Shown: positions 2 through 12,797, counted from the first letter of the stretch. The stretch: 32,000 bases of DNA from Raphidiopsis brookii D9 (GCA_000175855.1 ACYB01000038.1:90001-122000), one strand, 5' to 3'. Numbers and translations are program-made. Notes: generated from the letters alone by a model not told the origin.

Positions 2-259
2 GACTTAGTTGTATTGACTGATATTTACAGTGCTGGTGAACCCAGTTGTGAGCAAATTACAGGTGAAAAATTGGCAGCAGAAATTGCCAAGCAACACCCA
101 CAAGTGATTTATCAACCAAGTTTAGCCCTGATTCCTCGGGTTTTATTATCCACCCTACGTCCAGGGGATTTAGCAGTGTTTCTTGGAGCTGGTAATTTAA
201 ATCAGACAATTCCAGAAATTATTAGTGCACTGAGTGAACCGGTCACAGTCACAGTTTAG
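2..259 (+). CDS. murC: UDP-N-acetylmuramate--L-alanine ligase, C-terminal fragment (5' part lies left of the window)
   Basis: The frame is open from base 2 (DLVVLTDIYSAGEP...DLAVFLGAGNL), which is a typical Mur-ligase C-terminal end. TAG at 257-259. murB follows directly. The TTG at 14 in the ORF track is only the first start-like codon inside the window. Confidence 0.85.
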   Translation, partial: DLVVLTDIYSAGEPSCEQITGEKLAAEIAKQHPQVIYQPSLALIPRVLLSTLRPGDLAVFLGAGNLNQTIPEIISALSEPVTVTV

Positions 260-335
260 GGATGGCTAGATTATACGTATTTTAGCCTAAATATTGCGTT
301 TGAGATGTTAATAAAGCTACCCATTTACATTAACA

Positions 336-1343
336 ATGATAATTTCTGAGTCTTCTGCTAGTCCCCGCACAGTCCCTACTTTGACGGAAAATAAACAAAC
401 AACAGTTAATTCAGATGAAAATCAAATTATTTACTTACCTGGAACTAATTGTGTAATTAAGTCCAACATTTCCCTGTCTGGGTTTACCTCCTACAAAGTG
501 GGAGGAGAAGCCCAGTGGTATAGCGCCCCCCGGGATTTAATGGCTATAAGAGCAACTGTGAAGTATGCCCAGGATCTGGATTTACCCATCACAATATTGG
601 GAGCAGGTTCCAACCTATTAGTGAGTGATGAAGGTATACCAGGAATGGTAATTGCTACCCGTCACTTCCGTCACAAACATTTTGATAACCAAACAGGTCG
701 GTTAACAGTAGCTGCAGGGGAACCCATTCCCAGTTTAGCATGGGAAGCAGCAAGTTTAGGATGGGAAGGACTAGAGTGGTCAGTTGGCATTCCAGGTACT
801 GTAGGTGGTGCTGTTGTGATGAATGCAGGAGCACATAATAAATGTATGGGGGAAATGTTAGTCAGTGCAGAGTTACTATCTCCTGATGGTACTCTAGAAA
901 CTGTGAATAGGTCACAGTTGGGTTACACCTATCGCAGCTCCTTGTTACAAAGAAGTAAGCGTATAGTTACTCAAGCTACTTTTCAACTTCAACCAGGTGC
1001 AGATCCAGCTAAAGTCACTGCTAGAACTAAAGAACACAAGCAGCACCGTCTTTCCACTCAACCTTACAATTTTCCCAGTTGTGGGAGTGTGTTTCGCAAC
1101 CCCCTACCCCAGACTGCGGGATGGTTAATTGAGCAATCTGGATTAAAAGGCTATCAAATTGGTAGGGCCCAAGTCGCCCAACTTCATGCTAACTTTATTG
1201 TTAATCGTGGAGGTGCTAGGGCCAATGATATTTTCCGTCTCATTCGCCATATTCAACATCAAATTCAGGATCAATGGTCAATCTTATTGGAACCAGAGGT
1301 AAAAATGATTGGTCAGTTTCCTGTTTTGGATGGTTATTCTTGA
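336..1343 (+). CDS. murB: UDP-N-acetylenolpyruvoylglucosamine reductase
   Basis: 335-aa ORF with FAD-binding-type motifs (YKVGGEAQWY, ILGAGSNLLVSD, GIPGTVGGAVVMNAGA) and MurB C-terminal motifs (GYTYRSS, PSCGSVFRNP, AGWLIEQSGLKG). The true start could be slightly internal. Confidence 0.9.
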   Translation: MIISESSASPRTVPTLTENKQTTVNSDENQIIYLPGTNCVIKSNISLSGFTSYKVGGEAQWYSAPRDLMAIRATVKYAQDLDLPITILGAGSNLLVSDEGIPGMVIATRHFRHKHFDNQTGRLTVAAGEPIPSLAWEAASLGWEGLEWSVGIPGTVGGAVVMNAGAHNKCMGEMLVSAELLSPDGTLETVNRSQLGYTYRSSLLQRSKRIVTQATFQLQPGADPAKVTARTKEHKQHRLSTQPYNFPSCGSVFRNPLPQTAGWLIEQSGLKGYQIGRAQVAQLHANFIVNRGGARANDIFRLIRHIQHQIQDQWSILLEPEVKMIGQFPVLDGYS

Positions 1344-1418
1344 GTTGGTTGAGACTAGGTCAGTGACAACTATAATTAGACTTGATTTTTTATTCGCAGC
1401 ACAACTGGAAAATTTACT

Positions 1419-1748
1419 ATGACAGGATTTGGTTTTGGAAAAGTAAAAGAATTAGCAGACGCTTTTAAGAAAGCTCAGGAGGTGCAACAAGGTGCCAAAC
1501 GTCTCCAAGAGGAATTAGAGCAGATGGAAATTGTGGGCGAGTCTGGTGGTGGACTAATTAAGGTGATTATTAGTGGTAACCAGGAACCTAAAAGGGTAGA
1601 AATATCCCCAAATGCACTTAATGAGGGACCAGACGTGCTTTCTGATCTAGTAACAGCAGCAATGAAGGATGCTTATCTTAAATCTACTCAGACCATGCGG
1701 GAACGCATGGAAGAGCTAACTGGTGGTTTGGAACTACCAGGATTTTAG
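1419..1748 (+). CDS. ybaB: YbaB/EbfC family nucleoid-associated DNA-binding protein
   Basis: 109 aa. Family-typical layout: helical N-terminus ([19 protein letters not shown]), then [25 protein letters not shown], then [13 protein letters not shown]. Confidence 0.85.
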
Positions 1749-1762
1749 TCAATGACAAGAAA

Positions 1763-1799
1763 CCCTACTTTTATAAAAAGTAGGGGCCATTTGTTTTTT
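1763..1799. terminator. Intrinsic terminator hairpin between convergent ybaB and trnL
   Basis: CCCTACTTTT (1763-1772) / AAAAGTAGGG (1776-1785) form a 10-bp stem with a 3-nt loop, followed by the T-rich GCCATTTGTTTTTT. An A-run on the other side would allow bidirectional use. Confidence 0.55.
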
Positions 1800-1800
1800 A

Positions 1801-2126
1801 TGGGGGTGGGGGGACTTGAACCCCCACGACTTTCTACAGTCAACGGATTTTCATTCTCTTGCAGCTTTCGCTACTACCTTTGGGGTTTTAAGAATTGGAC
1901 TCTCCCTTTACCCTCGTCTTCACGTTAGGGTAGCTCCCGTCGAGTCTCTGCACCTTCCCAGAAACATTACGTGAGTTTACTGGGCTTGGCTCAGGATTGC
2001 CTTGTCTGTTTGATGAAATCTCATCAGATTTAGGTTTCCCTGAGTTTGAGAGCTTACACTTGAAGGATTTCTCTATCAAGGCTCACTTTTCTAAGTCCGC
2101 AGCGTCTACCATTCCGCCACACCCCC
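1801..2126 (-). tRNA. trnL: tRNA-Leu(UAA) interrupted by a group I intron (exons 2126-2093 and 1851-1801)
   Basis: On the minus strand, the 5' exon is GGGGGTGTGGCGGAATGGTAGACGCTGCGGACTT (34 nt, ends at U34). The 3' exon is AAAATCCGTTGACTGTAGAAAGTCGTGGGGGTTCAAGTCCCCCCACCCCCA (51 nt). Acceptor stem GGGGGTG/CACCCCC, T-arm GGGGGTTCAAGTCCCCC. Joining the exons restores the anticodon loop CTTAAAA (UAA). No encoded CCA. Confidence 0.9.
1852..2092 (-). ncRNA. Group I self-splicing intron (cyanobacterial/plastid tRNA-Leu type), 241 nt
   Basis: Inserted between U34 and A35. It ends in ...GAGAATG (terminal G). The core segments CTCAAACTCAGGGAAACCTAAATCT, GACAAGGCAATCCTGAGCCAAGCC, GGAAGGTGCAGAGACTCGACGGGAGCTACCCTAACG, GACGAGGGTAAAG, GAGTCCAATTCT and GTAGCGAAAGCTGC match what I remember of the Anabaena pre-tRNA-Leu intron. 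Confidence 0.85.
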
Positions 2127-2249
2127 GCAGGGTTTTTTATGATGTCAAAACATCATCATAACATCATGCTGCTTTTCCTAGACTTTGTCAAGAGGTTGGG
2201 GAAAATTTTTTCGGACTAGGTGAGGTAGTATGGGGCCATAAGCTATATA

Positions 2250-2498
2250 ATGGTGTATGCACTAAATAGATTCTCTCATCCCCAAATTATGCTTTTAGCA
2301 ATACTGTATTTAGCCTTGGCTGGAGCCTACCTGTTAGCCATACCACTGATGGTCATGTTTTATCTCAACTGGCGCTGGTATTCAGCAACTTCTGTGGAAC
2401 GTGGATTTATGTACTTCTTGGTCTTTTTCTTCTTCCCAGGTTTGTTGTTGCTTTCCCCCATTGCCAATTTTCGACCCAGACCCAGACAAATTGTTTAA
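2250..2498 (+). CDS. ndhL: NAD(P)H-quinone oxidoreductase (NDH-1) subunit L
   Basis: The two-TM small protein [29 protein letters not shown]...[27 protein letters not shown] matches the NdhL family pattern. The true start may be the ATG at 2289 (MLLAILY...), because a TATAAT box overlaps the ATG at 2250. Confidence 0.8.
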
Positions 2499-2523
2499 CG
2501 TAAATTGGTAGGTCACAACTCTC

Positions 2524-2829
2524 ATGCGACGTATTGATGCAATTACTATTACCTTAGGGATCTTCTTCATAGGCGGACTGGCTTATGGGGTGCTACAGTT
2601 GATTGGTTTGAATAGTCAAGATGCGGGAATTTGGAGTCAAGTTCTACTGGTGCTAGGTTTAATGGGTTGGTTGGGAACTTATCTATTCCGTGCAGGGAGT
2701 AAAACAATGACCTACCACCAACAGCGGGAAGAGTATGAAAAGGCTTTTCTCCAAAAGCGTCTGGATGAACTCTCCCCGGAAGAGTTAGCCAGAATACAAG
2801 CTAAGATTGATTCCAATGATCAACCCTAA
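2524..2829 (+). CDS. DUF3007 family membrane protein
   Basis: 101 aa, two TM helices (ITLGIFFIGGLAYGVLQLIG; WSQVLLVLGLMGWLGTYLF) followed by MTYHQQREEYEKAFLQKR. It sits in the ndhL-DUF3007-trpA arrangement I remember from cyanobacteria. The family assignment is from memory. Confidence 0.65.
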   Translation: MRRIDAITITLGIFFIGGLAYGVLQLIGLNSQDAGIWSQVLLVLGLMGWLGTYLFRAGSKTMTYHQQREEYEKAFLQKRLDELSPEELARIQAKIDSNDQP

Positions 2830-2843
2830 CCGATGACTAACTG

Positions 2844-3641
2844 ATGACCTCAATTTCTCGTTGTTTTGAAAATTTAAGACGGAATCAAGAGTGCGCCCTG
2901 ATTCCGTTTATTACTGCTGGTGACCCTGATTTACATACTACAGCTCAGGCTTTAGAAGTGCTAGATTGTGCTGGTGCGGATATTATTGAATTAGGTGTTC
3001 CCTACTCCGATCCCCTGGCAGATGGTCCAGTAATTCAAGCCGCTGCTACCCGTGCAATACAAAAAGGTACCACTTTAGAACAGGTGTTGACAATGCTCAA
3101 GGCTACTACACCTAAATTGAAAGCACCTGTAATATTATTTACATATTATAATCCCATTTTACATCGAGGAATTCCAAAATTTTTAGATGATATTAAATCC
3201 GCTGGTGTGTCAGGTTTGGTAGTTCCAGATTTACCTTTGGAAGAGTCTGCAACCCTTTTAAAACCAGCAAGTGACCAAGAAATTGACCTGACCCTTCTCA
3301 TAGCTCCCACAAGTTCCATGGACAGAATAGAAGCGATCGCCCATGCTTCTCAAGGTTTTATTTATTTGGTAAGTGTTACTGGTGTCACTGGTATGCGATC
3401 GCAAATGGAAAATCGAGTTTCTGAATTACTAGACAAAATCCGCACTGTTACAGATAAACCCATAGGTGTGGGATTTGGTATTTCTGACATAGAACAAGCA
3501 CGTCAAGTAAGAGACTGGGGAGCTGATGCAGCAATTGTAGGTAGTGCGATAGTCAAGCGATTGGCAGAGGGTACACCCGATCAGGGACTAGAAGCGATCG
3601 CCCAATTTTGTCGAAATTTAAAGGAGGCGGTCAAAAATTAA
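2844..3641 (+). CDS. trpA: Tryptophan synthase alpha chain
   Basis: 265 aa with TrpA hallmarks: [62 protein letters not shown]. Confidence 0.95.
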
Positions 3642-4466: not shown

Positions 4467-6305
4467 TTATCTACTACTGATCGGTTTTGGAGTTGGTATG
4501 GGGTTGTGGGTTTGACCCGGTAAAACCTGTTGGGCAACCTTTTGAGCTGCTTGTTTAAACAATGGTTCTAGTTTATCTTGCCAGTATTTAATATTAGGCA
4601 ACTTTTCTGGTTCGTTGCGATAGGCCAAGACCTTTTCCCATTGTCCGCTGTCAACAGCACGATTAATTTCATTAGCCAAAGTCTCAGCTTTGGCCCAGTC
4701 TTGTTGCCATTGGTCAATTATCTTCAATTGCTGACCATTAGAAGTGGTTTTTTGGGGAGCGGATTTCAGTTGAGCTATTGCTCCCTTCACATCCCCTGAC
4801 TGGAATTTTTGTCGAGCTTGTAGAACGATTGGATCTTGAGACTCTGTATCAGCAGATTGAGACAAGAATGGGGATGGAGGGGTAGTAGGAGATAACTGAG
4901 GTTTAGGCACTATTCGAGATGTAATTAAAGGTAAATCATCAACGATTTGAAGAGAAACACCCTGGTCTCGCAGACAAGAGACCCATTGGTCATTGTTAGT
5001 AATCACATCGGAATGAGCCCAGGCCAAACGACCAGATTTAAGTTTAACTTCTATCCAACCACGCTTAGTTCTTTTTCCGGTAACAATAAACTCACTAGGA
5101 TCACCAATACTCTTTAAAATATTATCAGAACTAATGGCGCTAGGTTGGGAGCGCACATTAGAATTTGGTGCTACCATGGCCAAACAATTTTCTGGAGATG
5201 TGCCATTCTTATCCTTCCAATTAGCAGTCAAGGTTTGAATGTTGGGATATAAATTGCCTACTAAAGCTGCTGCACCACCGACCAAAAATAAACCAATTAC
5301 CAGTGGTAAGAGATCTGGTTTTTGTTCCTGTTTAGGAGCAGATACTAGGGGAGGAGTGTGAACAGGTGCCAAAGCTAAGGTAGGTTGTGGAAACAATGAA
5401 ACAGATTGATTATGGGCTTTTATGGGTAATTTTTTTCCACTGGGTGTGGGAGATAGGGAGTAACCGAAGGATTTAGCATATTCTTTTATAAACTCTCGAC
5501 AAACTTCTAATACTTCTGTTGCCGTTTGATAACGTTCCTTGAAGTGATAACGCACCATTTTGCTGAGAATTTCCCCCAGACGGGAATTGACAGGTCGAAA
5601 ATGTTGCCAGAGAATTTCACCGGTATCCGGATCCTCTGGAAACTGATTAGCAGCTATTCCTGTTAAAGCTTGAATAGCAATGATACCCAAAGCATAAATA
5701 TCACTACTTGGGCGAGGTTTACCCTGTCCTTGCTCAGTAGGCATATAACCAGGAGTGCCAACAATTATAGTGGGATTTAATTGATGTTCTGAAAGAACAG
5801 AAGGACAACGTACTTGTTTGACAGCTCCAAAATCCACAAGCACCAGTTTGTAATCATCCACACGACGAATCAGATTGTCAGGTTTTATATCCCGGTGAAT
5901 CACCCCCTGCTGATGGACAAATTCCAAAACTTCTAAGATTTCCAAGAGGAATTGTATGACTTGGTTTTCACCCCATGGTTGTCCGGGTATAAGTTCCATT
6001 GTCAGGGTATGACCATCAATGTATTCCTGAACCAGGAAAAATTCCTGATTTTCATCAAAATAAGCCAGTAACCGAGGTATTTGATCATGATTACCCAATT
6101 TTTCCAAGGTTTCAGCTTCATTATTAAACAGACGTTTAGCAGTTGTAAAAATATGCTTGTCATTACTAACCAGTTTTAGATGTTTAACAACACAAATAGG
6201 ATTACCAGGTCGCCGAGTATCTTGAGCGATGTAGGTTTGACTAAATCCCCCAGTTGCTAAAACACGCACAACTTTATATCTATGGTCTAGTAGTTTGCCT
6301 ATCAT
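4467..6305 (-). CDS. Serine/threonine protein kinase (Hanks type) with TM segment and extracytoplasmic SH3b-like region
   Basis: Kinase motifs: GGFSQTY (G-loop), VVKHLK, HRDIKPDNL, DFG, GTPGYMPTEQ. TM at LLPLVIGLFLVGGAAALVG. The following segment NVRSQPS...GWIEVKLKSGRLAWAHSDVI looks like a bacterial SH3 domain. The C-terminus is helical. Confidence 0.9.
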   Translation of the reverse strand: MIGKLLDHRYKVVRVLATGGFSQTYIAQDTRRPGNPICVVKHLKLVSNDKHIFTTAKRLFNNEAETLEKLGNHDQIPRLLAYFDENQEFFLVQEYIDGHTLTMELIPGQPWGENQVIQFLLEILEVLEFVHQQGVIHRDIKPDNLIRRVDDYKLVLVDFGAVKQVRCPSVLSEHQLNPTIIVGTPGYMPTEQGQGKPRPSSDIYALGIIAIQALTGIAANQFPEDPDTGEILWQHFRPVNSRLGEILSKMVRYHFKERYQTATEVLEVCREFIKEYAKSFGYSLSPTPSGKKLPIKAHNQSVSLFPQPTLALAPVHTPPLVSAPKQEQKPDLLPLVIGLFLVGGAAALVGNLYPNIQTLTANWKDKNGTSPENCLAMVAPNSNVRSQPSAISSDNILKSIGDPSEFIVTGKRTKRGWIEVKLKSGRLAWAHSDVITNNDQWVSCLRDQGVSLQIVDDLPLITSRIVPKPQLSPTTPPSPFLSQSADTESQDPIVLQARQKFQSGDVKGAIAQLKSAPQKTTSNGQQLKIIDQWQQDWAKAETLANEINRAVDSGQWEKVLAYRNEPEKLPNIKYWQDKLEPLFKQAAQKVAQQVLPGQTHNPIPTPKPISSR

Positions 6306-6483
6306 GATTTATTCCCCGGTTCCATACTTAATCTTGTAATTTTGCCTAGTCAATATCTCCAAATTTTCTGTCCTAATATCCGCTATGTTGAGAAAAGATT
6401 TAGACTAAAGTGGCAGTTTTTTCGATTAAACTCAAAAATTGTCAATGCGTAGGTCCTAGTTTTTTGAATTATTTTTAAAAAAA

Positions 6484-6972
6484 ATGCCACCTAATATCCC
6501 CAATTCTACTATATGGCAACAAGCGGAAATTCTCATGCAACCAGCTTTTATCCGCATTGTTGATAATATTCGTAAACATCTAGATATATCCAAGTGGAAA
6601 GGAAGTTACCACGATGTACTGATTTGGCCAGCAGGTACAACGGATGGAACTAAATCTATTGTGATCCAGTTATTGGAGGATTCGAAAAACGCCACAGCGG
6701 AAGATTTACTAGCTATTAAGCAAAAACTGGCTCTTTTACCCATCCCCCATCCGGGATATCATTTGCGTTTGCAATATCAAGAACAGGTGGTGAATATGGA
6801 TTTGTGGGATTTATGTTATCAGGTTTGTTTTGTGGATTATAGTCCTGAAAATGTCCTAGTTGACATTGATACTAATTTATTAGATGAATTTGGGGAGGTA
6901 GATTGGCAATATTTAGAGAGTAAGACCAAGGGGTTAGTGCAAAGAATTTTTGATAACCTAATAGAAAGTTGA
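6484..6972 (+). CDS. Conserved cyanobacterial hypothetical protein
   Basis: 162-aa ORF. The N-terminus WQQAEILMQPAFIRIVDNIRK and the segment PGYHLRL...WDLCYQVCF resemble a conserved cyanobacterial protein of unknown function that I remember. No domain name is asserted. Confidence 0.55.
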   Translation: MPPNIPNSTIWQQAEILMQPAFIRIVDNIRKHLDISKWKGSYHDVLIWPAGTTDGTKSIVIQLLEDSKNATAEDLLAIKQKLALLPIPHPGYHLRLQYQEQVVNMDLWDLCYQVCFVDYSPENVLVDIDTNLLDEFGEVDWQYLESKTKGLVQRIFDNLIES

Positions 6973-7218
6973 CTCTCCCCCACGCACAGTGTCCAGGTAG
7001 TGCATTGACTGTTATAGCTTTTTTAGTATCCCTACAGCATAGTCCCAAATACTAATGTAGGGGATATACACATACACAATAGTTCACCGGTTCTCAGCGA
7101 TTTTTTCCATGCTCCGGTTTGGGTAATTAATGACTGGTTCACAATTTGTTTGGTTCAGCTTGCATGAAAATCCCCGTTGTGCATAAAATTACAATGAACC
7201 TAATTGGGAATTTCACAA

Positions 7219-8460
7219 ATGTGGCAAGTAATAAAAGACATAATTGAAAAATTGCAAAGTTGGTGGGGTGGATTGAGAGATCATATTTTCGGGAAAGAAC
7301 CAGATATTATAGATGATGGTGGTGATGGGGACGGAGAGGAATCCGAAACAGGAGGTTCTGGAGAAAAAATTCCAATAATCGACGACTTCGATTATGGCCC
7401 TATTATTGATCGTCTTCCTCCAACAAAGATCTTCCCGAAAGAAATTTTATTTGAGCATCCCAGTGATAAAATTGATTCGCTCCAGAAAAAAGTTTTAGAA
7501 ATTTTATTTTCTCGATTCAACTTATCAGCAAAAGAGGGTGATAATTATGTTGCCTATTTTCCGTCTCGGTTGCTTTCTTATATTAAACAAAAAGATGCCT
7601 TTTTTGCCTTTAGGCAATTTCTTAATGACATCGGCACAACACCCGATGAAGTTTTTAAAAACCGAGAAATAGCAAATTTTGTCAAAGAGGCAATTTTGGG
7701 GCTTTATGAAGCTGATGTCAACCGTTGGGATACTCCCCTTTCTACTGAACCTCTGTATCAAAAACTAAAACAATCCATTAATTGCCATAACTTAGATGAC
7801 TTTATTAACCTGCTAAATAAACTGGAAAAATTTGCCATTCTTGCCCACCAAATAGAAAGATTGATCGGTAAAATTCCCTTTCACGAGTTTGACCAATTTT
7901 CCCAGGAAGTAAAATCTCAATTAAAAGAATGGCATACTATACCGGAAAAAACTGTTAATCAGTGGAAGAATTCACTGAACAAATATGAAAGCCAATCTAC
8001 AAATTACCAAAATCTTTGTAAGCAAATTTCTCAAGATTTTCTGCGAGTAGAATCATTGTCCCTAACATCGGAACAAACTATCGTTATTGAATATTTATTA
8101 AAGGAAGTAGAGCAACTTAAAAAACTACTGCAAGTTGGACCAGTTGAACTCGATGATGGGATAGAACAACTGGAAATTTTAGCCGATGAAATCAAGGGAT
8201 TTGTTGATGAAGTTTCATATCGTCATAGAGAGGCCGAAAGTTCGAGAACAGAAGATGTTCCACCCAAAAATAATAAATTATCCCTGGATGAGGCATTAAT
8301 ACTACTCAGTCTAACCCTAGAAACACTCACACTCCAATCACTCAAAACATCACGCAATAGATATGCCAGAATTCATCACCCTGATATAGGTGGAGATGAA
8401 AAAATGATGAAAAAAATTAATCAGGCCTACGAAATCTTGAAGGAGTACTTAGAAATCTGA
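7219..8460 (+). CDS. J-domain (DnaJ-like) protein with a long helical N-terminal region (cassette gene 1)
   Basis: C-terminal J domain with an intact HPD loop: LDEALILLSL...LKTSRNRYARIHHPDIGGDEKMMKKINQAYEILKEYL. Acidic DDGGDGDGEESETGGSGE stretch near the N-terminus. No TM segment. ATG at 7219 is preferred over the TTG at 7204. Confidence 0.75.
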   Translation: MWQVIKDIIEKLQSWWGGLRDHIFGKEPDIIDDGGDGDGEESETGGSGEKIPIIDDFDYGPIIDRLPPTKIFPKEILFEHPSDKIDSLQKKVLEILFSRFNLSAKEGDNYVAYFPSRLLSYIKQKDAFFAFRQFLNDIGTTPDEVFKNREIANFVKEAILGLYEADVNRWDTPLSTEPLYQKLKQSINCHNLDDFINLLNKLEKFAILAHQIERLIGKIPFHEFDQFSQEVKSQLKEWHTIPEKTVNQWKNSLNKYESQSTNYQNLCKQISQDFLRVESLSLTSEQTIVIEYLLKEVEQLKKLLQVGPVELDDGIEQLEILADEIKGFVDEVSYRHREAESSRTEDVPPKNNKLSLDEALILLSLTLETLTLQSLKTSRNRYARIHHPDIGGDEKMMKKINQAYEILKEYLEI

Positions 8461-8594
8461 AGTAAAAATAACTAACCGGATAGATCTTCATTTACGGATC
8501 TTCTTTACAAATCTTAATATACTTTGCTACTAGCAAGTTTTAGGATTGATTAGAATAAAAAAAATACGTATTATTCCCTACTACTTACACCCCA

Positions 8595-9344
8595 ATGCGC
8601 CAGGAACCGATTAAAAATCCTCCGGATCATCTCAAGACTCAGGATCACCAGTCACTGAAACCACAACGCGAACTGAGAAATTATGATGATCTAATCAAAC
8701 AATATGCTAAGCCAACCCGAATTATAGGTCTGGTAGATGCAACGGGTTCAATGAAACCATTGTGGGACAAAACAGTACAGAGTATTCAAGAACTGATCCG
8801 TCGAATCCTGGAAACGGGAAAAATTGAGCTTTCTTGGGTTGCTTACCGAGATTATTGCGATCATCACAGAATTATTGAACAAAGTAATTGGAGCGACTCG
8901 GTTGAATATCTCAAAACCTTTATGGCAAAAATCGTCTGTAATGGTGGTGGAGACTTTCCTGAAGCTGTGGAAAAAGCCTTAGAGGTTGCAATTAATGAGT
9001 CTGAGGTTTCTAGGGTTATCCTCATTGGTGATGCACCTCCTCATGCGGATAAAGATTACCGAAGTAAGGCAATTCAACTAGGGAAACTTAACAGGCCTGT
9101 TTTTAGCTTTGTTGTTGGCAATCACACCGACACGAAAAGAACCTTCGGAGAAATTTCAGATCTTTCGCGTGGAGTTTCTTTTAACCTAGAAAATGAGGAT
9201 GATATTTTGGATTTAATTGCAGTTACTGTTATAGATCAAATTGGGGGTCAAAAGTCTTTAGGTAAATATTTAGATGCTTATGGCTCTAAGTTATCTCCCA
9301 GCGTCAAAAACTTTATTCAACAACTTCCTCCAAGCAAAAAGTAG
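8595..9344 (+). CDS. von Willebrand factor type A (vWA) domain protein (cassette gene 2)
   Basis: MIDAS-type pattern IIGLVDATGSM ... WVAYRDY ... NGGGDFPEAVEKAL ... RVILIGDAPPH. 249 aa, no signal peptide or TM segment. Confidence 0.8.
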   Translation: MRQEPIKNPPDHLKTQDHQSLKPQRELRNYDDLIKQYAKPTRIIGLVDATGSMKPLWDKTVQSIQELIRRILETGKIELSWVAYRDYCDHHRIIEQSNWSDSVEYLKTFMAKIVCNGGGDFPEAVEKALEVAINESEVSRVILIGDAPPHADKDYRSKAIQLGKLNRPVFSFVVGNHTDTKRTFGEISDLSRGVSFNLENEDDILDLIAVTVIDQIGGQKSLGKYLDAYGSKLSPSVKNFIQQLPPSKK

Positions 9345-9354
9345 AAAGCAGATT

Positions 9355-10308
9355 ATGAGCTTGATCAAAATCTTTAAAATAGTCTATTTAGTTGGCATAG
9401 TTTTGTCGGGAGTGTTGACATTTGTTTCCTCTGACAAGAACAATACCGAAATTAGTAAATTAGTCTGGTTAGTTGGTGTGAGTCATGTTTTCGTACTAGC
9501 CATGATAGGTTTTAGGATGGAAAGATCTAAAGATAAAGCTGCTGCTGGACTGAGAGTACAGACATCAGGTTATCTGCATACGTTGATAGGATTCAGTGGT
9601 GCTTTATTTCAACTAGATCCCCAAAATTTATTGGCAACCATTGTGGTTCCTTTAAGTTACGCCCTATTCACCAGTATTATCGGTTGGTTTTTTGGTGGAG
9701 AATTAGTAAATGAATTCGATGGGGGAGGAGCGGTAGATATTGGCAATGAAGGAGAGCGAATTGCCCAAGAGTTTCACATTTTTGCGGAGAACCTTGGCCG
9801 AGAATTTCAGAGTTTTGCAGATAGCTTGAGTGCAATTCACGAGCAATACAGTCGCAAAATAGAAGATGCTTCAAACTCTTTTGAAAGTCAGCTACAAAAA
9901 GTAGGAGCAGCTTATAAAGGAATGGTGGATACACAGGAAGTTCAATTTGATAGATTGAGCAAAAAACAGCTTGATTTATTGGCTCAATTAGAAGATTATC
10001 AAAAAAGGTTCATAGATAGTCAGAATAGCTGTTACGGTAAAATGGATAATGCTATTCAGGAGTCTATTAATTCATCGGATAAATTAAACGCCAGTGTTGA
10101 TGCTTTGACTAGTGCTTTATCCACAAAGGAACTATTCTCCATAACTAGCAATTTTGTATACCTAAGTGAACAGACAAAAGTAGCATCAGATAATATGGAA
10201 CAAGTGGCAACTACATCTAAAAATGTCGCTAAATACTTGGAGGAGAGTAAAATTTTAATCGACCAACTGGAAAAGTTATTAAGTTCAATTAACTCTTATC
10301 GGAGGTAA
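9355..10308 (+). CDS. Four-TM membrane protein, MotA/TolQ/ExbB/ZorA-like by eye, with a C-terminal coiled-coil tail of about 170 aa (cassette gene 3)
   Basis: ATG at 9355 lies 10 nt after the vWA stop. The ORF-track start at 9274 would overlap gene 2. TM helices: IVYLVGIVLSGVLTFV, LVWLVGVSHVFVLAMIGF, GYLHTLIGFSGALFQL, IVVPLSYALFTSIIGWFFGG. The last hairpin resembles the GxLGTxxG / ALxxTxxG channel signature. The remainder is heptad-like helical sequence. The membrane-plus-tail layout is seen directly; the MotA-family call is inferred. Confidence 0.55.
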   Translation: MSLIKIFKIVYLVGIVLSGVLTFVSSDKNNTEISKLVWLVGVSHVFVLAMIGFRMERSKDKAAAGLRVQTSGYLHTLIGFSGALFQLDPQNLLATIVVPLSYALFTSIIGWFFGGELVNEFDGGGAVDIGNEGERIAQEFHIFAENLGREFQSFADSLSAIHEQYSRKIEDASNSFESQLQKVGAAYKGMVDTQEVQFDRLSKKQLDLLAQLEDYQKRFIDSQNSCYGKMDNAIQESINSSDKLNASVDALTSALSTKELFSITSNFVYLSEQTKVASDNMEQVATTSKNVAKYLEESKILIDQLEKLLSSINSYRR

Positions 10309-10314
10309 AGACTA

Positions 10315-10935
10315 ATGCAAATTAGAAGCAATATGGAACAAGCAGAGATTTTTGTTTTTATCGCTTCCTTCTTTCTGATTGCTCTTGGTTTTAAGGAACC
10401 AGATGGGCCAGTCAAAAAGCCGTCTGAACATCCACCAATCATTCTATTTCCTGAATCTTCCAGGTATAACTTTCGTTCAGGTCGTGCTGAATTAAGTTCG
10501 GAATTTAGGGATCATATTCGCACTAAACTGAAACCAAAAATTTTGGAAGTTGTCAAACAATACAAGGATATTGACGCTATTGAGGTGATTGGTCATACTG
10601 ATGGCAGGCCAATTAATAGTGTTGAACAATCCATCTCAAGTCACAATAGCAATTTGGATAATAATTTAGAGAGGGTTAATCTAGGCAAATTATCTGTATC
10701 CAGATTGCAACCTGGCTCTAATACCGATTTAGGTATTATGAGAGCTTTGGCTGTTGTCCAGGAACTGAAACAATCCGGAGGGGGAATTTCAAAACTCAAT
10801 CTCCGTGCCTATTCTGCAGGACAGTTATTATTGGAAGATGGTCAACCAGCACCAATAGATACAACAGATAACCCTGAAAGAAGACGAATAGAAATTCGTT
10901 TCACAAAATTGGGTCGTACTCAGGTTTTTAAATAG
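10315..10935 (+). CDS. OmpA/MotB-family peptidoglycan-binding protein with N-terminal TM anchor (cassette gene 4)
   Basis: N-terminal TM IFVFIASFFLIALGF. OmpA-like domain: FRSGRAEL..., IEVIGHTDG, NTDLGIMRALAVVQEL, RAYSAGQ, NPERRRIEIRF. ATG at 10315 lies 6 nt after the gene 3 stop, with GGAGG at 10301-10305. Confidence 0.8.
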   Translation: MQIRSNMEQAEIFVFIASFFLIALGFKEPDGPVKKPSEHPPIILFPESSRYNFRSGRAELSSEFRDHIRTKLKPKILEVVKQYKDIDAIEVIGHTDGRPINSVEQSISSHNSNLDNNLERVNLGKLSVSRLQPGSNTDLGIMRALAVVQELKQSGGGISKLNLRAYSAGQLLLEDGQPAPIDTTDNPERRRIEIRFTKLGRTQVFK

Positions 10936-10981
10936 GGGTTCCTATTGGAAAATTTCGTTTTAAGAATTTCGTTTTACTTTG

Positions 10982-11026
10982 GCGATCGCATGATTTGCGC
11001 CATACAAAAAACCAACTGGCGATCGC
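10982..11026. repeat. Pair of HIP1 palindromes (GGCGATCGC) 37 nt apart in the spacer after the cassette
   Basis: GCGATCGC at 10982-10989 and 11019-11026. These are the first HIP1 copies after a HIP1-free stretch that begins after 3601. Confidence 0.9.
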
Positions 11027-11447
11027 TCTTTTAATTTCAAATAACTTCACATAGCAAAATGGAAAATTATGAGTTTTAGACCACCATATAAATATGTCTA
11101 ATACGGGAATTAGCTCTTAAGTTACCTAATTTTTTTAGTCTTGTCAAGCAGGATATTCTTGTGTTCTTGCAAGTTCTCGTTAATAAGTAGCAAAATCTAC
11201 TAAATATATTATGACATGATTATAGTTACTAAAATAGTTGCTTAAATGGGACAAAGGCAAAAAAGATGATCTTACCTGTCAACATTATGAGTTAGGATAG
11301 AAAATTAGCATTTCTTTGATGAAATATCCCTATTAAATTGTTGATTGTTGGGATTTTATGGACAAAAGTCCACCAGATGGCAGTAGTATCCTCTCCTAAG
11401 TTGGGGACATTGTCTCCCGCTGTAGGGGAGACATAAGGAGGTGAATC

Positions 11448-12797
11448 GTGCTAACACAAGATGTTCGCAACGCTTTGGATGTTGCTGACTTAAACAAACT
11501 CAAATATGATTTAAATAGTCTCCAACCGGTAGACGTAGGAGAGTATATTTCAGAATTGCCAGAACAACAAAGGGCGATCGCATTTAGGTTGTTAAACAAA
11601 AATCAGGCCATTGATGTTTTTGAGTACTTACCTACAGATGTGCAGGAGGAACTGATTAATTCCTTGCATGATGTTCAGGTGGTACATTTAGTAGAAGAAA
11701 TGAGTCCTGATGAAAGAGCGTATTTATTTGATGAATTACCTGCAGGGGTAGTTAAAAGACTATTACAACAACTTAGTCCGGAACAAAGACAAGCAACCGC
11801 GACAATTTTGGGATATCCCGAAGGTACCGCAGGTAGAGTCATGACTACAGAGTATGTCCGGTTGCGTCAAGGATTAACAGTGGGGGAAGCATTAAGTAAA
11901 ATTCGTCTTCAAGATGAAGATAAAGAAACTATTTACTATGCTTATGTAACCGATGATAACCGTAAGTTAGTGAGTGTAGTCTCTTTGCGTCAGTTGTTAT
12001 TCACCTTTCCAGAAGTTTTCATCAGGGATATTGCTAGTTCCCAGGTAGTGAAAGTGACTACAGAAACTCCCCAAGAAGAAGTGGCGCGGATCATGCAGCG
12101 TTATGATTTAATTGCCATACCCGTAGTGGATCGGGAGGATAGATTAGTAGGAATTATCACTATTGATGATGTGGTTGATATTTTACAAGAGGAGGCCACA
12201 GAGGATATTCAAAAATTGGCAGCGGTAAGTGGTGATGAAGAGGCCTTATCCCCACCCCATTTGACCATTCGCAAACGCTTACCCTGGTTATTGGGGATTA
12301 TGGCATTGTATATTGGTGCAGCTAGTGCGATCGCTCCTTTTCAAAAAGTAATTGCTGCGGTTCCGGTTTTAGCGGTGATTATGCCCATATTTTCTAATAC
12401 TGGAGGAACCGTGGGTATTCAGGCCTTAACCGTGACAATTCGGGGTTTAGGTGTGGGAGAGGTGACCACAAAGGATGCTGGGAAAATTTTGCGGAAGGAA
12501 CTCATAGCAGGTCTAGGAACTTCCTTGGCTTTGGGTTCAACCATGGTTCTACTTTCTTTGATTTGGGCAAAACCTGATGAAAAGTGGGTAGCTTTAATTG
12601 CTGGAATAGTAATGGCCACTAACACCATGGTTGCTGTGAGTTTGGGGACTTTATTACCCATGGGATTACAAAGGCTAAAATTAGATCCAGCTTTAATGAG
12701 TGGTCCACTGGTGACAACTATGTTGGATACTATTGGTTTTTTAACCTTCTTGAGCATGATTTCCCTTGCTTTGAAAGTATTTAATTTAAGCTATTAG
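11448..12797 (+). CDS. mgtE: Magnesium transporter MgtE
   Basis: 449 aa: MgtE N-domain, tandem CBS pair (VMTTEYVRL..., [25 protein letters not shown]), then the 5-TM channel domain ([37 protein letters not shown]). GTG start with AAGGAGG at 11435-11441. Confidence 0.95.

Follow-up and report, generated by a model that had tools for sequence, protein, structure and literature searches.

What do four adjacent genes of the cyanobacterium Raphidiopsis brookii D9 encode, and do their products form a single membrane machine? The genes lie in a stretch of 32,000 nucleotides (ACYB01000038.1:90001-122000; hereafter the window, in which all coordinates are given), and were proposed from the DNA alone (the original prediction) to be a candidate undescribed system, in which a J-domain protein and a vWA (von Willebrand factor A) protein accompany a MotA/ZorA-like channel protein and a MotB/OmpA-like anchor. 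We propose that the products of genes 3 and 4, termed the A and B subunits, very probably form a ZorAB-like complex, as judged from sequence comparison, and that the cassette as a whole is, by a narrow balance of probability, a Zorya-like, envelope-anchored and ion-driven sensor without nuclease partners. The open reading frames (ORFs) and the ribosome-binding site of the last one are as follows.

7219-8460, plus strand: gene 1, 413 residues, a soluble, helical protein (from the ORF and the starts of its orthologues)
8595-9344, plus strand: gene 2, 249 residues, a cytoplasmic vWA protein of the VWA_4 subfamily
9355-10308, plus strand: gene 3 (A subunit), 317 residues, mini-ZorA-like, with four transmembrane helices and a cytoplasmic helical tail
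10315-10935, plus strand: gene 4 (B subunit), 206 residues, ZorB/MotB-like
10301-10305, plus strand: GGAGG, the ribosome-binding site of gene 4, within the end of gene 3 (read in the sequence)

Orthologues of gene 1 begin at MWQ (7219), and its frame is also open from a TTG at 7204; those of gene 3 begin at MSLIK (9355), and a longer in-frame ATG is present at 9274. The stop codon of gene 2 (TAG, 9342-9344) is separated by 10 nucleotides from the ATG of gene 3, and that of gene 3 (TAA, 10306-10308) by 6 nucleotides from the ATG of gene 4. The four same-strand genes, the two short gaps and the GGAGG, all claimed beforehand, are read directly in the sequence.

Every database name for gene 3 is 'hypothetical protein'. 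A word-indexed search recovered 31 homologues and an exhaustive profile search 136 clusters at E<=1e-10, and a complete four-helix transmembrane (TM) domain is found in 141-143 stored proteins of this A family. The AlphaFold2 (AF2) model of gene 3 contains four TM helices (residues 2-28, 31-53, 58-85 and 89-123) with predicted local distance difference test (pLDDT) values of 80-93, and the positive-inside rule places both ends and the tail in the cytoplasm. Invariant residues of the TM domain are Y11, G14, H44, G72-Y-L-x-T76, T106-S107, G110-W111 and G114. Three parts of gene 3 are referred to below.

9538-9702, plus strand: TM3-TM4 hairpin (residues 62-116), in which G72, Y73, L74, T76, T106, S107, G110, W111 and G114 are invariant
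9739-10302, plus strand: cytoplasmic tail (residues 129-316; helices 129-254 and 260-316 in the AF2 model)
about 10207-10302, plus strand: conserved tail tip VAKYLxESxxLIxxLExLL (residues about 285-316; from the orthologue alignment)

The hairpin segments GYLHTLIGFSGALF and LSYALFTSIIGWFFG, which are present in gene 3 and conserved or invariant in its orthologues, had been taken as MotA-like and as followed by a tail of about 170 residues. The AF2 model and hhalign bear out the four TM helices, the hairpin and the helical tail, the last of which measures about 190 residues. For the comparison with ZorA, we used a ZorA2 profile of seven genuine N-termini, including that of the annotated zorA2-zorB2-zorE locus on an E. 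coli plasmid. Against this profile, the TM profile of A gave P=3.5e-5 to 6.9e-5 over 53-55 hairpin columns. The hairpin score was 32.7, as compared with 11.1 +/- 2.2 (maximum 20.1) in 200 column shuffles and 13.0 for the reversed alignment; none of the 200 shuffles reached the observed score, which lies about 10 standard deviations above them. T76 and T106/S107 of A fall on Thr147 and Ser184 of ZorA, which form the ion filter of the latter (PMC11946911). The hairpin of A thus appears to be of the MotA/ExbB/TolQ type with a polar Thr/Ser filter, and the check proposed with the original prediction, namely whether gene 3 belongs to the MotA/ExbB/ZorA fold, comes out in its favour.

The A family profile also finds two proteins, P0166 and P0171, in a co-linear alignment that runs from TM2 on into the tail. 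Both are genuine type II ZorA, matching PADLOC ZorA2 at 1e-88 and 1e-81, respectively, and passing Pfam MotA_ExbB; single-sequence hhalign of A against either of them was marginal. Furthermore, the cassette member P0025 matches the ZorA2 model PDLC00635 over residues 77-242, a region including the hairpin and the start of the tail (E=1.4e-6). Among PDB sequences, the full-length gene 3 profile gave only coiled-coil noise (chemoreceptors, apolipoproteins and designed bundles), and the search was therefore repeated with the TM domain alone; the top of 177,635 PDB sequences was the type II ZorA 8vvi_F, aligned in register but at E=0.15. Likewise, a Foldseek search of the whole gene 3 model against the PDB, dominated by the long tail, found nothing at E<=0.001, and the local matches were to MotA (8gqy_A) and to the ZorAB chain 8vvi_C (probability 0.98, template-modelling score 0.71, root-mean-square deviation 2.7 Å). 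Altogether, we regard A as highly likely to be a remote, miniature ZorA-like protein, nearest to type II.

The tail of A is predicted to be an amphipathic helix with a period of 3.60, at a power reached by 0 of 500 shuffles, and would correspond to the long cytoplasmic helical tail of a ZorAB core, albeit shorter than those of ZorA1 and ZorA2. Across the family its length varies (median 161 residues, maximum 369 residues), whereas the tip keeps Y294, L295, L301 and L308 invariant together with conserved acidic residues. This combination of a conserved tip and a variable length suggests a docking or signalling function.

Gene 4 had been read as a single-TM protein with an OmpA/MotB domain, and the reading holds. 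The N-terminal TM helix of B precedes a polyproline II (PPII) linker motif and an OmpA-type domain (nucleotides about 10432-10914) predicted to bind peptidoglycan, and the motifs GHTD, SN.DLG..R and RRRIE.R are invariant after the helix. The B profile matches PomB (5e-4), ZorB 8vvn_B (2e-3) and then MotB, TssL and ZorB 8vvi_A among PDB sequences, and hhalign aligns B with genuine ZorB2 over its full length (165 columns, P=3.7e-5). The gene 4 product matches PADLOC ZorB2 at E=1.4e-5 and Pfam OmpA at E=4e-4 (21 bits, below the gathering score of 27.2), and B falls below the thresholds of the ZorB models. The periplasmic part of B is thus probably a domain of the OmpA/MotB type, as in ZorB. With A nearest to type II ZorA and B aligned with ZorB2, the claim of a ZorA/ZorB-like core stands.

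In every characterised 5:2 motor, the TM helix of the B subunit bears an Asp that is essential and sits close to its cytoplasmic end, Asp26 in ZorB (PMC11946911). The acidic TM residue of gene 4 anticipated in the original prediction is present and can be specified as a Glu, not an Asp: Glu11 (codon 10345-10347) is invariant in 16 of the 16 B orthologues, in the context ...KQAE-IF.F.A.FFL..., and aligns on D24 of ZorB2 and D24 of PomB. An invariant Glu at the proton-carrying site offers a natural experiment on ion coupling. In work of 1998 attributed to Zhou and co-workers, D32E is reportedly the only substitution of MotB Asp32 that retained partial function. We also noticed in the TM1-TM2 region of A (9355-9720) that His44 (TM2) and Y11/G14 (TM1) are invariant and that His75, beside the filter Thr, is nearly so. 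None of them has a counterpart in the ZorA2 alignment, and they may represent a family-specific proton path matched to the Glu of B.

We compiled 79 loci (cited below by L numbers) from look-ups, species-representative genomes and a metagenome scan, detected partner genes with hidden Markov models (HMMs), and counted lineages after de-duplication at 90% A identity. In 46 of 49 lineages A is followed directly by B, with abutting or overlapping frames; this is the same-strand order of zorA immediately upstream of zorB, seen with a gap of 6 nucleotides in the window. Partners were tallied in the 36 lineages with enough flank on both sides. The helical region of gene 1 preceding its J domain, here termed the J core, is encoded upstream of A in 18 of them, in addition to divergent short forms. 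These 18 comprise 11 lineages in which the J core lacks a J domain, 6 with the J core, the J domain and vWA (the form in the window) and a single one with the J core and the J domain but no vWA. In another 11 lineages, constituting a sister clade, the genes after A-B encode a TerY-like vWA, PP2C and a Ser/Thr kinase, the latter frequently as a fusion with GUN4, and 7 of the 11 encode a giant SPFH/Band7-vWA protein upstream. No partner was recognised by the HMMs in the last 7 lineages, at least two of which hold a divergent J core of 168-169 residues (E=2e-6 to 2e-7).

The J core without the J domain is directly upstream of A in Halothece/Dactylococcopsis and in many metagenome loci, and the 'short J' proteins of Halothece/Dactylococcopsis stop after the core and have no HPD (His-Pro-Asp) loop. 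As the short forms end after the core and divergent cores were found elsewhere, the recurring minimal module is the J core, A and B, to which one clade has added the J domain and vWA; the J core is the constant third partner of A-B across the family. The expected co-occurrence of all four genes is borne out, with a refinement. The full J-vWA-A-B order recurs in unrelated bacteria at 27-31% A identity (a Thiotrichales metagenome-assembled genome (MAG), a Pyrinomonadaceae MAG and unassigned metagenome contigs), but the J domain and vWA are optional, and a Saprospiraceae MAG has J-A-B with the HPD lost. As for B, the proteins of L015, L016, L020, L022, L023, L025, L027 and L029 bear a coiled-coil insert of 60-120 residues, rich in E, Q, L and A, separating the TM helix from the PPII/OmpA part, which looks like a variable periplasmic spacer.

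The family was found in 22 of 185,579 species-representative genomes belonging to four phyla, among which the Cylindrospermopsis representative is not included; it is thus patchy and no universal housekeeping cluster, as had been anticipated. No member of the A family was detected among 2.9 million viral contigs. C. raciborskii strains possess homologues at 82-95% identity, and the same locus (murC...trpA, Ser/Thr kinase, a 162-residue ORF, the cassette, mgtE, pyrB and pheT) is seen in three assemblies. In Cylindrospermopsis, two diverged variants (47-55% A identity) occupy two unrelated sites, era-dxs and kinase-mgtE, and several alleles are truncated. The era-dxs variant of A (L004 8001-9104, cluster P0020; 360-367 residues), present in many Cylindrospermopsis strains, is longer through an internal duplication of the tail (a repeated ...KHSELSEQLETSQQ[KR]FID.Q... 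segment), and the gap between its J and vWA genes, about 725 nucleotides, is unusually long. The copy of Crocosphaera watsonii WH 8501 (L031 7965-9976, L072), with the A and B genes each split into two ORFs, looks like a decaying one.

Gene 1 consists, in this order, of an N-terminal amphipathic helix, a Pro-rich disordered linker, the helical J core and a C-terminal J domain, and a close homologue is named 'J domain-containing protein' at NCBI.

7432-8253, plus strand: J core (residues about 72-345; from the orthologue alignment)
8272-8457, plus strand: J domain (residues about 352-413; from Pfam, Foldseek and orthologues)

Its AF2 model has an overall pLDDT of 64; residues 200-340 and the J domain reach 80-94, and the N-terminal 125 residues are of low confidence. 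F78, Q89, Y113, L118, L135, D166, Y180 and W238 of the J core are invariant, and P115 and R117 are also conserved; a fold search with the gene 1 model returned no informative match for the core, and the J domain was the only part identified. The Pfam DnaJ match (E=0.0028) is under the gathering score. By Foldseek, the J domain is best matched by that of Tim14 (2guz_A; probability 1.00, template-modelling score 0.79, 33% identity), and the HPD loop (residues 387-389, nucleotides 8377-8385) is kept in 14 of 15 orthologues. Gene 1 hence appears to end, as claimed, in a domain of J fold with an intact HPD between helices II and III. An example of membrane-tethered J proteins that place Hsp70 at a membrane machine is Tim14/Pam18 in the import motor TIM23, likewise with HPD in its J domain. 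Gene 1, in contrast, has no TM segment, and its product would be positioned via the J core and/or the vWA protein. We consider it fairly probable that the J domain of the window cassette recruits DnaK. A precedent for Hsp70 being wired into phage sensing is bNACHT25, which uses host DnaJ for this purpose (PMC12169576).

The product of gene 2 matches Pfam PF25106 (VWA_4) with 36.4 bits, above the cutoff of 27. No hydrophobic segment was found in its sequence, and therefore it is cytoplasmic, in agreement with the original prediction. The motifs VDATGSM, GGGDFPEA and GDAPPH noted there are present and conserved or invariant in orthologues. Among 29 homologues, D48, A49, T50, M53, W57, AYRD83-86, G118, D120, E123 and GDAPPH145-150 are invariant, and the metal-site residues, i.e., DxTxS (D48, T50 and S52; D48-x-T50-x-S52 at 8736-8750), D120 and D146, are invariant or nearly so. 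These residues point to a vWA fold with a metal-ion-dependent adhesion site (MIDAS; motif DxSxS...T...D). The membrane-tethered periplasmic vWA force transducers (PMC12204202) were considered as a parallel and set aside, the vWA of gene 2 being cytoplasmic instead.

A J-like N-terminal domain is fused to 3 of about 65 cassette-type vWA proteins (P0211, P0229 and P0207). In L038, an Hsp70 gene (with the DLGGGTFD motif) is directly upstream of the fusion P0211. This context is independent genomic evidence that the cassette-type vWA subfamily works with J-type domains and Hsp70. As no Hsp70 is encoded in the window cassette, host DnaK would be the partner there. The L038 segment (2-3262) continues from the Hsp70 and the J-like(SPD)-vWA fusion to a 330-residue single-TM protein, with a vWA-FHA protein gene nearby on the opposite strand, and may be a separate Hsp70/J/vWA module without a stator pair.

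How does the cassette compare with named systems? Zorya type II (ZorA2-ZorB2-ZorE; for example that of E. coli plasmid pQnrS1_005237, or ZorAB of Sulfuricurvum kujiense, 8vvi) likewise has the A gene immediately upstream of the B gene, a hairpin that follows a short N-terminal TM region without a large cytoplasmic domain and precedes a long helical tail, a B subunit with an acidic residue in its N-terminal TM helix and an OmpA-type domain, and an accessory, patchy distribution. The hairpin motifs are LGILGTFxG and AFITSIxG in type II versus GYLHTLIGF and ALFTSIIGW in the cassette family. Invariant Y11, G14, H44, Y73 and W111 and the conserved tail tip are found only in the latter, which has Glu where type II ZorB has Asp. 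Type II has the HNH protein ZorE, whereas the cassette has no nuclease and possesses J-core/J-domain and vWA partners instead. Short-tailed relatives of ZorA2 also exist outside the family: the small, mobilizable Psychrobacter plasmid pA17BP1 (7.4 kb; L043 342-1775) encodes a 363-residue ZorA2-like protein and an OmpA-family ZorB2-like protein, annotated only as hypothetical and OmpA.

With Zorya type I (ZorABCD; Hu et al., Nature 2024, PMC11946911), the cassette would share the logic of a peptidoglycan-anchored 5:2 motor of which the tail signals to soluble partners, and A shares the Thr/Ser ion-filter positions. On the other hand, ZorA of type I contains Ca2+ sites in a membrane-proximal cytoplasmic domain, and its tail measures about 500 residues (70 nm); A has neither such a domain nor such a tail, and the type I partners, the DNA-binding ZorC and the nuclease/helicase ZorD, are both missing from the cassette. 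The A hairpin and a B subunit composed of a TM helix and a periplasmic domain are common to MotAB/PomAB and ExbBD/TolQR. However, MotAB/PomAB have a torque-generating cytoplasmic domain between TM2 and TM3, where A has a loop of only about 12 residues; neither group has the C-terminal helical tail of A; and the B subunit of ExbBD/TolQR is of the ExbD/TolR type instead of OmpA-like. We found no flagellar genes in the window, and neither TonB nor TolA is encoded by the cassette or in the flanking regions, consistent with the original prediction. The TerY-P triad (vWA-PP2C-Ser/Thr kinase) is physically integrated with A-B in the sister clade, along with SPFH-vWA, EAD1-GUN4 and caspase-like proteins, and a vWA protein is a recurrent cytoplasmic companion in both clades. 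The window cassette itself has no such triad: PP2C is not encoded, the single kinase of the window runs on the opposite strand and the vWA is of the VWA_4 subfamily.

The partner genes had been predicted to be unlike ZorC/D/E/F/G, and genes 1 and 2 have no ZorC-G match in PADLOC; the cassette encodes neither a nuclease nor a helicase, so that the partners defining the Zorya types (ZorC+ZorD, ZorE or ZorF+ZorG) are absent. The combination matches no named system, as predicted: PADLOC-DB v2 and NCBIfam 20.0 have no model recognising genes 1-3, and the searchable literature describes no J-domain-, vWA- or TerY-P-partnered relative of ZorAB and no 'Zorya IV'. The structural papers on Zorya (including PMC11946911) recognise three subtypes. 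Kaur et al. 2020 (PMC7159879) and PMC11090510 mention no stator-like membrane pair; a text match to 'ZorA' in the former is the surname of an author.

Some copies of the cassette are found next to defence or mobile genes. The cassette of L005 comes directly after MzaB/C/D (E=1e-62, 1e-104 and 3e-13), with RadC, a TnpB-like gene and a nucleotidyltransferase also there, that of L007 is beside an Mrr-type nuclease and an IS481 transposase, that of L001 is beside three transposases and a TIR-HEAT protein, and one distant cassette neighbours a HepT/MNT pair. The kinases of the sister clade match the defence kinase PD-T4-6 (3e-43), and their neighbours include EAD1-GUN4 and caspase-like proteins, types that figure in the conflict systems described by Kaur et al. 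(PMC7159879). The TerY-P triad is reported as a stand-alone anti-phage module in PMC11090510, which cites Anantharaman et al. 2012 and Gao et al. 2020. We regard a role of the cassette in conflict or defence as moderately probable. A 1018-residue SNF2 helicase (L014 12019-15075; ZorD/DpdE models, E=8e-143) downstream of a J-core-A pair was rejected as a partner: it is 3 kb off, two opposite-strand genes lie between, and the match is to a generic helicase core only. No B gene was detectable with this pair.

If the ZorAB-like reading is followed through, by homology to ZorAB, MotAB and PomAB, A and B would form an inner-membrane complex of the 5:2 type with a B dimer inside an A pentamer. The TM helix of B would carry the protonatable Glu, its OmpA domain would bind peptidoglycan, and A would supply an ion path lined by T76 and T106/S107. 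The tail would reach about 20-28 nm into the cytoplasm and end in the conserved tip. On the Zorya analogy, perturbation of the envelope, for instance by phage entry, would let B grip the cell wall and so permit ion flow or rotation, and the tail would pass the signal to the cytoplasm. The J core and/or the MIDAS face of vWA would probably dock at the tip, with the helical J core as the receiver. In Zorya, truncations of the ZorA tail abolish defence, and these truncations and D26N abolish effector recruitment (PMC11946911). Because a functional-looking HPD J domain and a MIDAS-intact vWA are present, the output in the window clade would most likely consist in drawing host Hsp70 (DnaK) to the activated complex and stimulating the ATPase of this chaperone locally. 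DnaK would then either act on the complex or on a bound client, remodelling or resetting it, or gate an abortive, membrane-depolarising ion leak. As the cassette contains no recognisable enzymatic effector, the end effect would be chaperone-driven remodelling or sequestration, or an ion leak. Nothing points to DNA cutting as the output, and any specific effector step is doubtful. The most far-reaching version, in which the partner coupled to a stator-type rotary ion motor is Hsp70, in place of a nuclease, flagellum or TonB/TolA rod, with a minimal Glu-run A5B2, a tail tip docking vWA and J, and DnaK activated upon envelope breach, is put forward only tentatively.

Several observations weigh against a Zorya-like sensor. 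Gene 3 fails every curated threshold: it does not match Pfam MotA_ExbB, scores 20.5 bits (E 2e-4) against NCBIfam antiphage_ZorA_3 of which the cutoff is 250, and matches PADLOC ZorA1 and ZorA2 (E=8e-5 and 7e-4, respectively) in no part but the tail, so that no curated ZorA model recognises A and the link appears to depend on profile-profile and transitive matches. With four TM helices and about 190 residues of tail, A departs from type II ZorA, which has three helices and about 400-480 residues, and the TM2-TM3 loop of A harbours no cytoplasmic domain. The essential Asp of ZorB is replaced with a Glu, albeit a chemically similar residue. The absence of an enzyme counts on the same side. As the J domain is missing from many family members, the HPD is lost in L013, and the His of HPD is replaced in the fusions P0211, P0229 and P0207 (SPD, GPD and SSD), DnaK recruitment cannot be the core mechanism of the family. 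Spread in islands beside defence genes, which the original prediction proposed to look for, was seen for the copies with Mza, Mrr and transposase neighbours, but the flanks in the window (the Ser/Thr kinase, mgtE, pyrB and pheT) are housekeeping and include no defence genes; those of the L067/L077 trio, between gyrA and asd/hemE, are equally plain. Either variant is common within Cylindrospermopsis, which fits a lineage-specific cellular function. Finally, the comparisons show the homology of A and B with the stator/Zorya pair, the conservation of gene order and of catalytic-type residues, the patchy distribution and, in another context, a genomic link of vWA with J domains and Hsp70; the stoichiometry, the trigger, the binder of the tail tip, the involvement of DnaK and the anti-phage role are our inference.

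Among the alternatives, the one that survives best, though we hold it improbable, is a lineage-restricted system for envelope maintenance or stress rather than immunity, in which A-B would power some process at the peptidoglycan or outer membrane, or sense it, in the manner of Tol-Pal, with J and vWA as cytoplasmic partners in quality control or regulation. The housekeeping surroundings of the window and its orthologous loci, in which neither mobile-element scars nor flanking repeats were found, are in keeping with it, as are the prevalence of one or other variant in many Cylindrospermopsis strains, the lack of an enzymatic effector, the insertion site of the L067/L077 trio and the many non-defence roles of 5:2 motors (PMC12204202). 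Such a function is difficult to reconcile with the extreme patchiness (22 of 185,579 genomes in four phyla), with two unrelated insertion sites and truncated alleles in one genus, with copies next to Mza, Mrr, transposases and TnpB, and with the sister clade residing in kinase/caspase/EAD conflict modules; moreover, the nearest relative in sequence is the defence protein ZorA2, not TolQ/ExbB.

Somewhat less likely still is an ion channel for abortive infection without rotary signalling. A-B would then be a gated proton leak, with the J core (together with vWA and DnaK) as its gate, antitoxin or assembly chaperone. The minimal module of a short J core, A and B contains no enzyme, and the PPII segment after the TM helix of B sits where MotB has its plug. 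MotAB stator units conduct ions once unplugged, and J proteins commonly hold or remodel oligomers, both of which agree with a leak gated in this way. Against it, the conserved tip on a tail of variable length suggests docking or signalling, as is the case for the ZorA tail (PMC11946911).

That the likeness to stators is superficial, gene 3 being an unrelated four-TM coiled-coil protein beside an OmpA-family protein and the four genes not constituting one machine, could be argued from the missing Pfam MotA_ExbB match, the failure of the whole-model Foldseek search at E<=0.001 and the ZorA HMM matches of the window protein limited to its low-complexity tail. We judge this very improbable, given a hairpin in register with ZorA2 far above the shuffles, invariant polar residues at the ion-filter positions of ZorA, a B subunit aligned on ZorB2 over its full length with acidic residue on acidic residue, and the adjacency of A and B in nearly all lineages. 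A degenerate TerY-P-like phospho-switch made up of the cassette and the divergent Ser/Thr kinase (4467-6305, minus strand) would mirror the sister clade, which pairs A-B with vWA, PP2C and Ser/Thr kinases, and both the window and L034-L036 have a kinase 900 nucleotides upstream of gene 1, but such a switch is hardly credible with the kinase on the opposite strand, no PP2C gene, a vWA subfamily differing from the TerY-like one, and no adjacent kinase in the era-dxs copy or in any of the distant J-vWA-A-B cassettes.

The ZorAB-like core of the cassette is already known in kind from the 5:2 motors and Zorya; the unusual aspects are the chaperone-type partners, the modular outputs and the Glu at the proton site. 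Zorya is among the commonest anti-phage systems that are still incompletely understood, with signal transfer from the motor to the cytoplasm an open question. The A family offers a much smaller version, with an A of 317 residues devoid of a membrane-proximal cytoplasmic domain, a tail that is short and sharply conserved at its tip, and a B of 206 residues. At least three alternative output modules are combined with it (the J core alone, the J domain with vWA, and SPFH-vWA with TerY-PP2C-kinase), and the partner of the tail is therefore testable by comparison. If a motor coupled to Hsp70 is real, the family and its kinase/phosphatase sister clade would make ZorAB-like motors a modular envelope-to-cytoplasm chassis with interchangeable outputs, and the cassette would be the second case, after bNACHT25-DnaJ, of Hsp70 wired into phage sensing. 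With a role in defence, the cassette would bring Zorya-like immunity into the cyanobacteria, among them Cylindrospermopsis/Raphidiopsis, a toxin producer that forms blooms and in which strain-level resistance to phages is ecologically relevant.

As for the local sequence, an internal promoter had been suggested in the 134-nucleotide gap between genes 1 and 2. The hexamers TTTACG (8491-8496) and TAATAT (8515-8520) do exist, but promoter-like sites in 6300-11600 are not enriched (14 versus 17.4 +/- 3.9 expected by chance), and this suggestion was therefore dropped. No meaningful direct or inverted repeats, i.e., no insertion scars, were found in the flanks of the cassette. The G+C content is 36-38% in 6000-12000 and 41-43% on either side; the low-G+C stretch runs past the cassette into the 162-residue ORF and the 5' part of mgtE. 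The 162-residue ORF (6484-6972, plus strand), located between the kinase and the cassette, had no match in Pfam, NCBIfam or PADLOC and no record in an exact look-up. Three other Cylindrospermopsis assemblies have this ORF in the corresponding position, and it is missing from the era-dxs copy. The kinase (612 residues, 4467-6305, minus strand) is divergent from the cassette, about 900 nucleotides upstream of gene 1, and is kept at the orthologous locus in L034-L036. Given that the sister clade is always kinase-paired, this adjacency may or may not be a coincidence.

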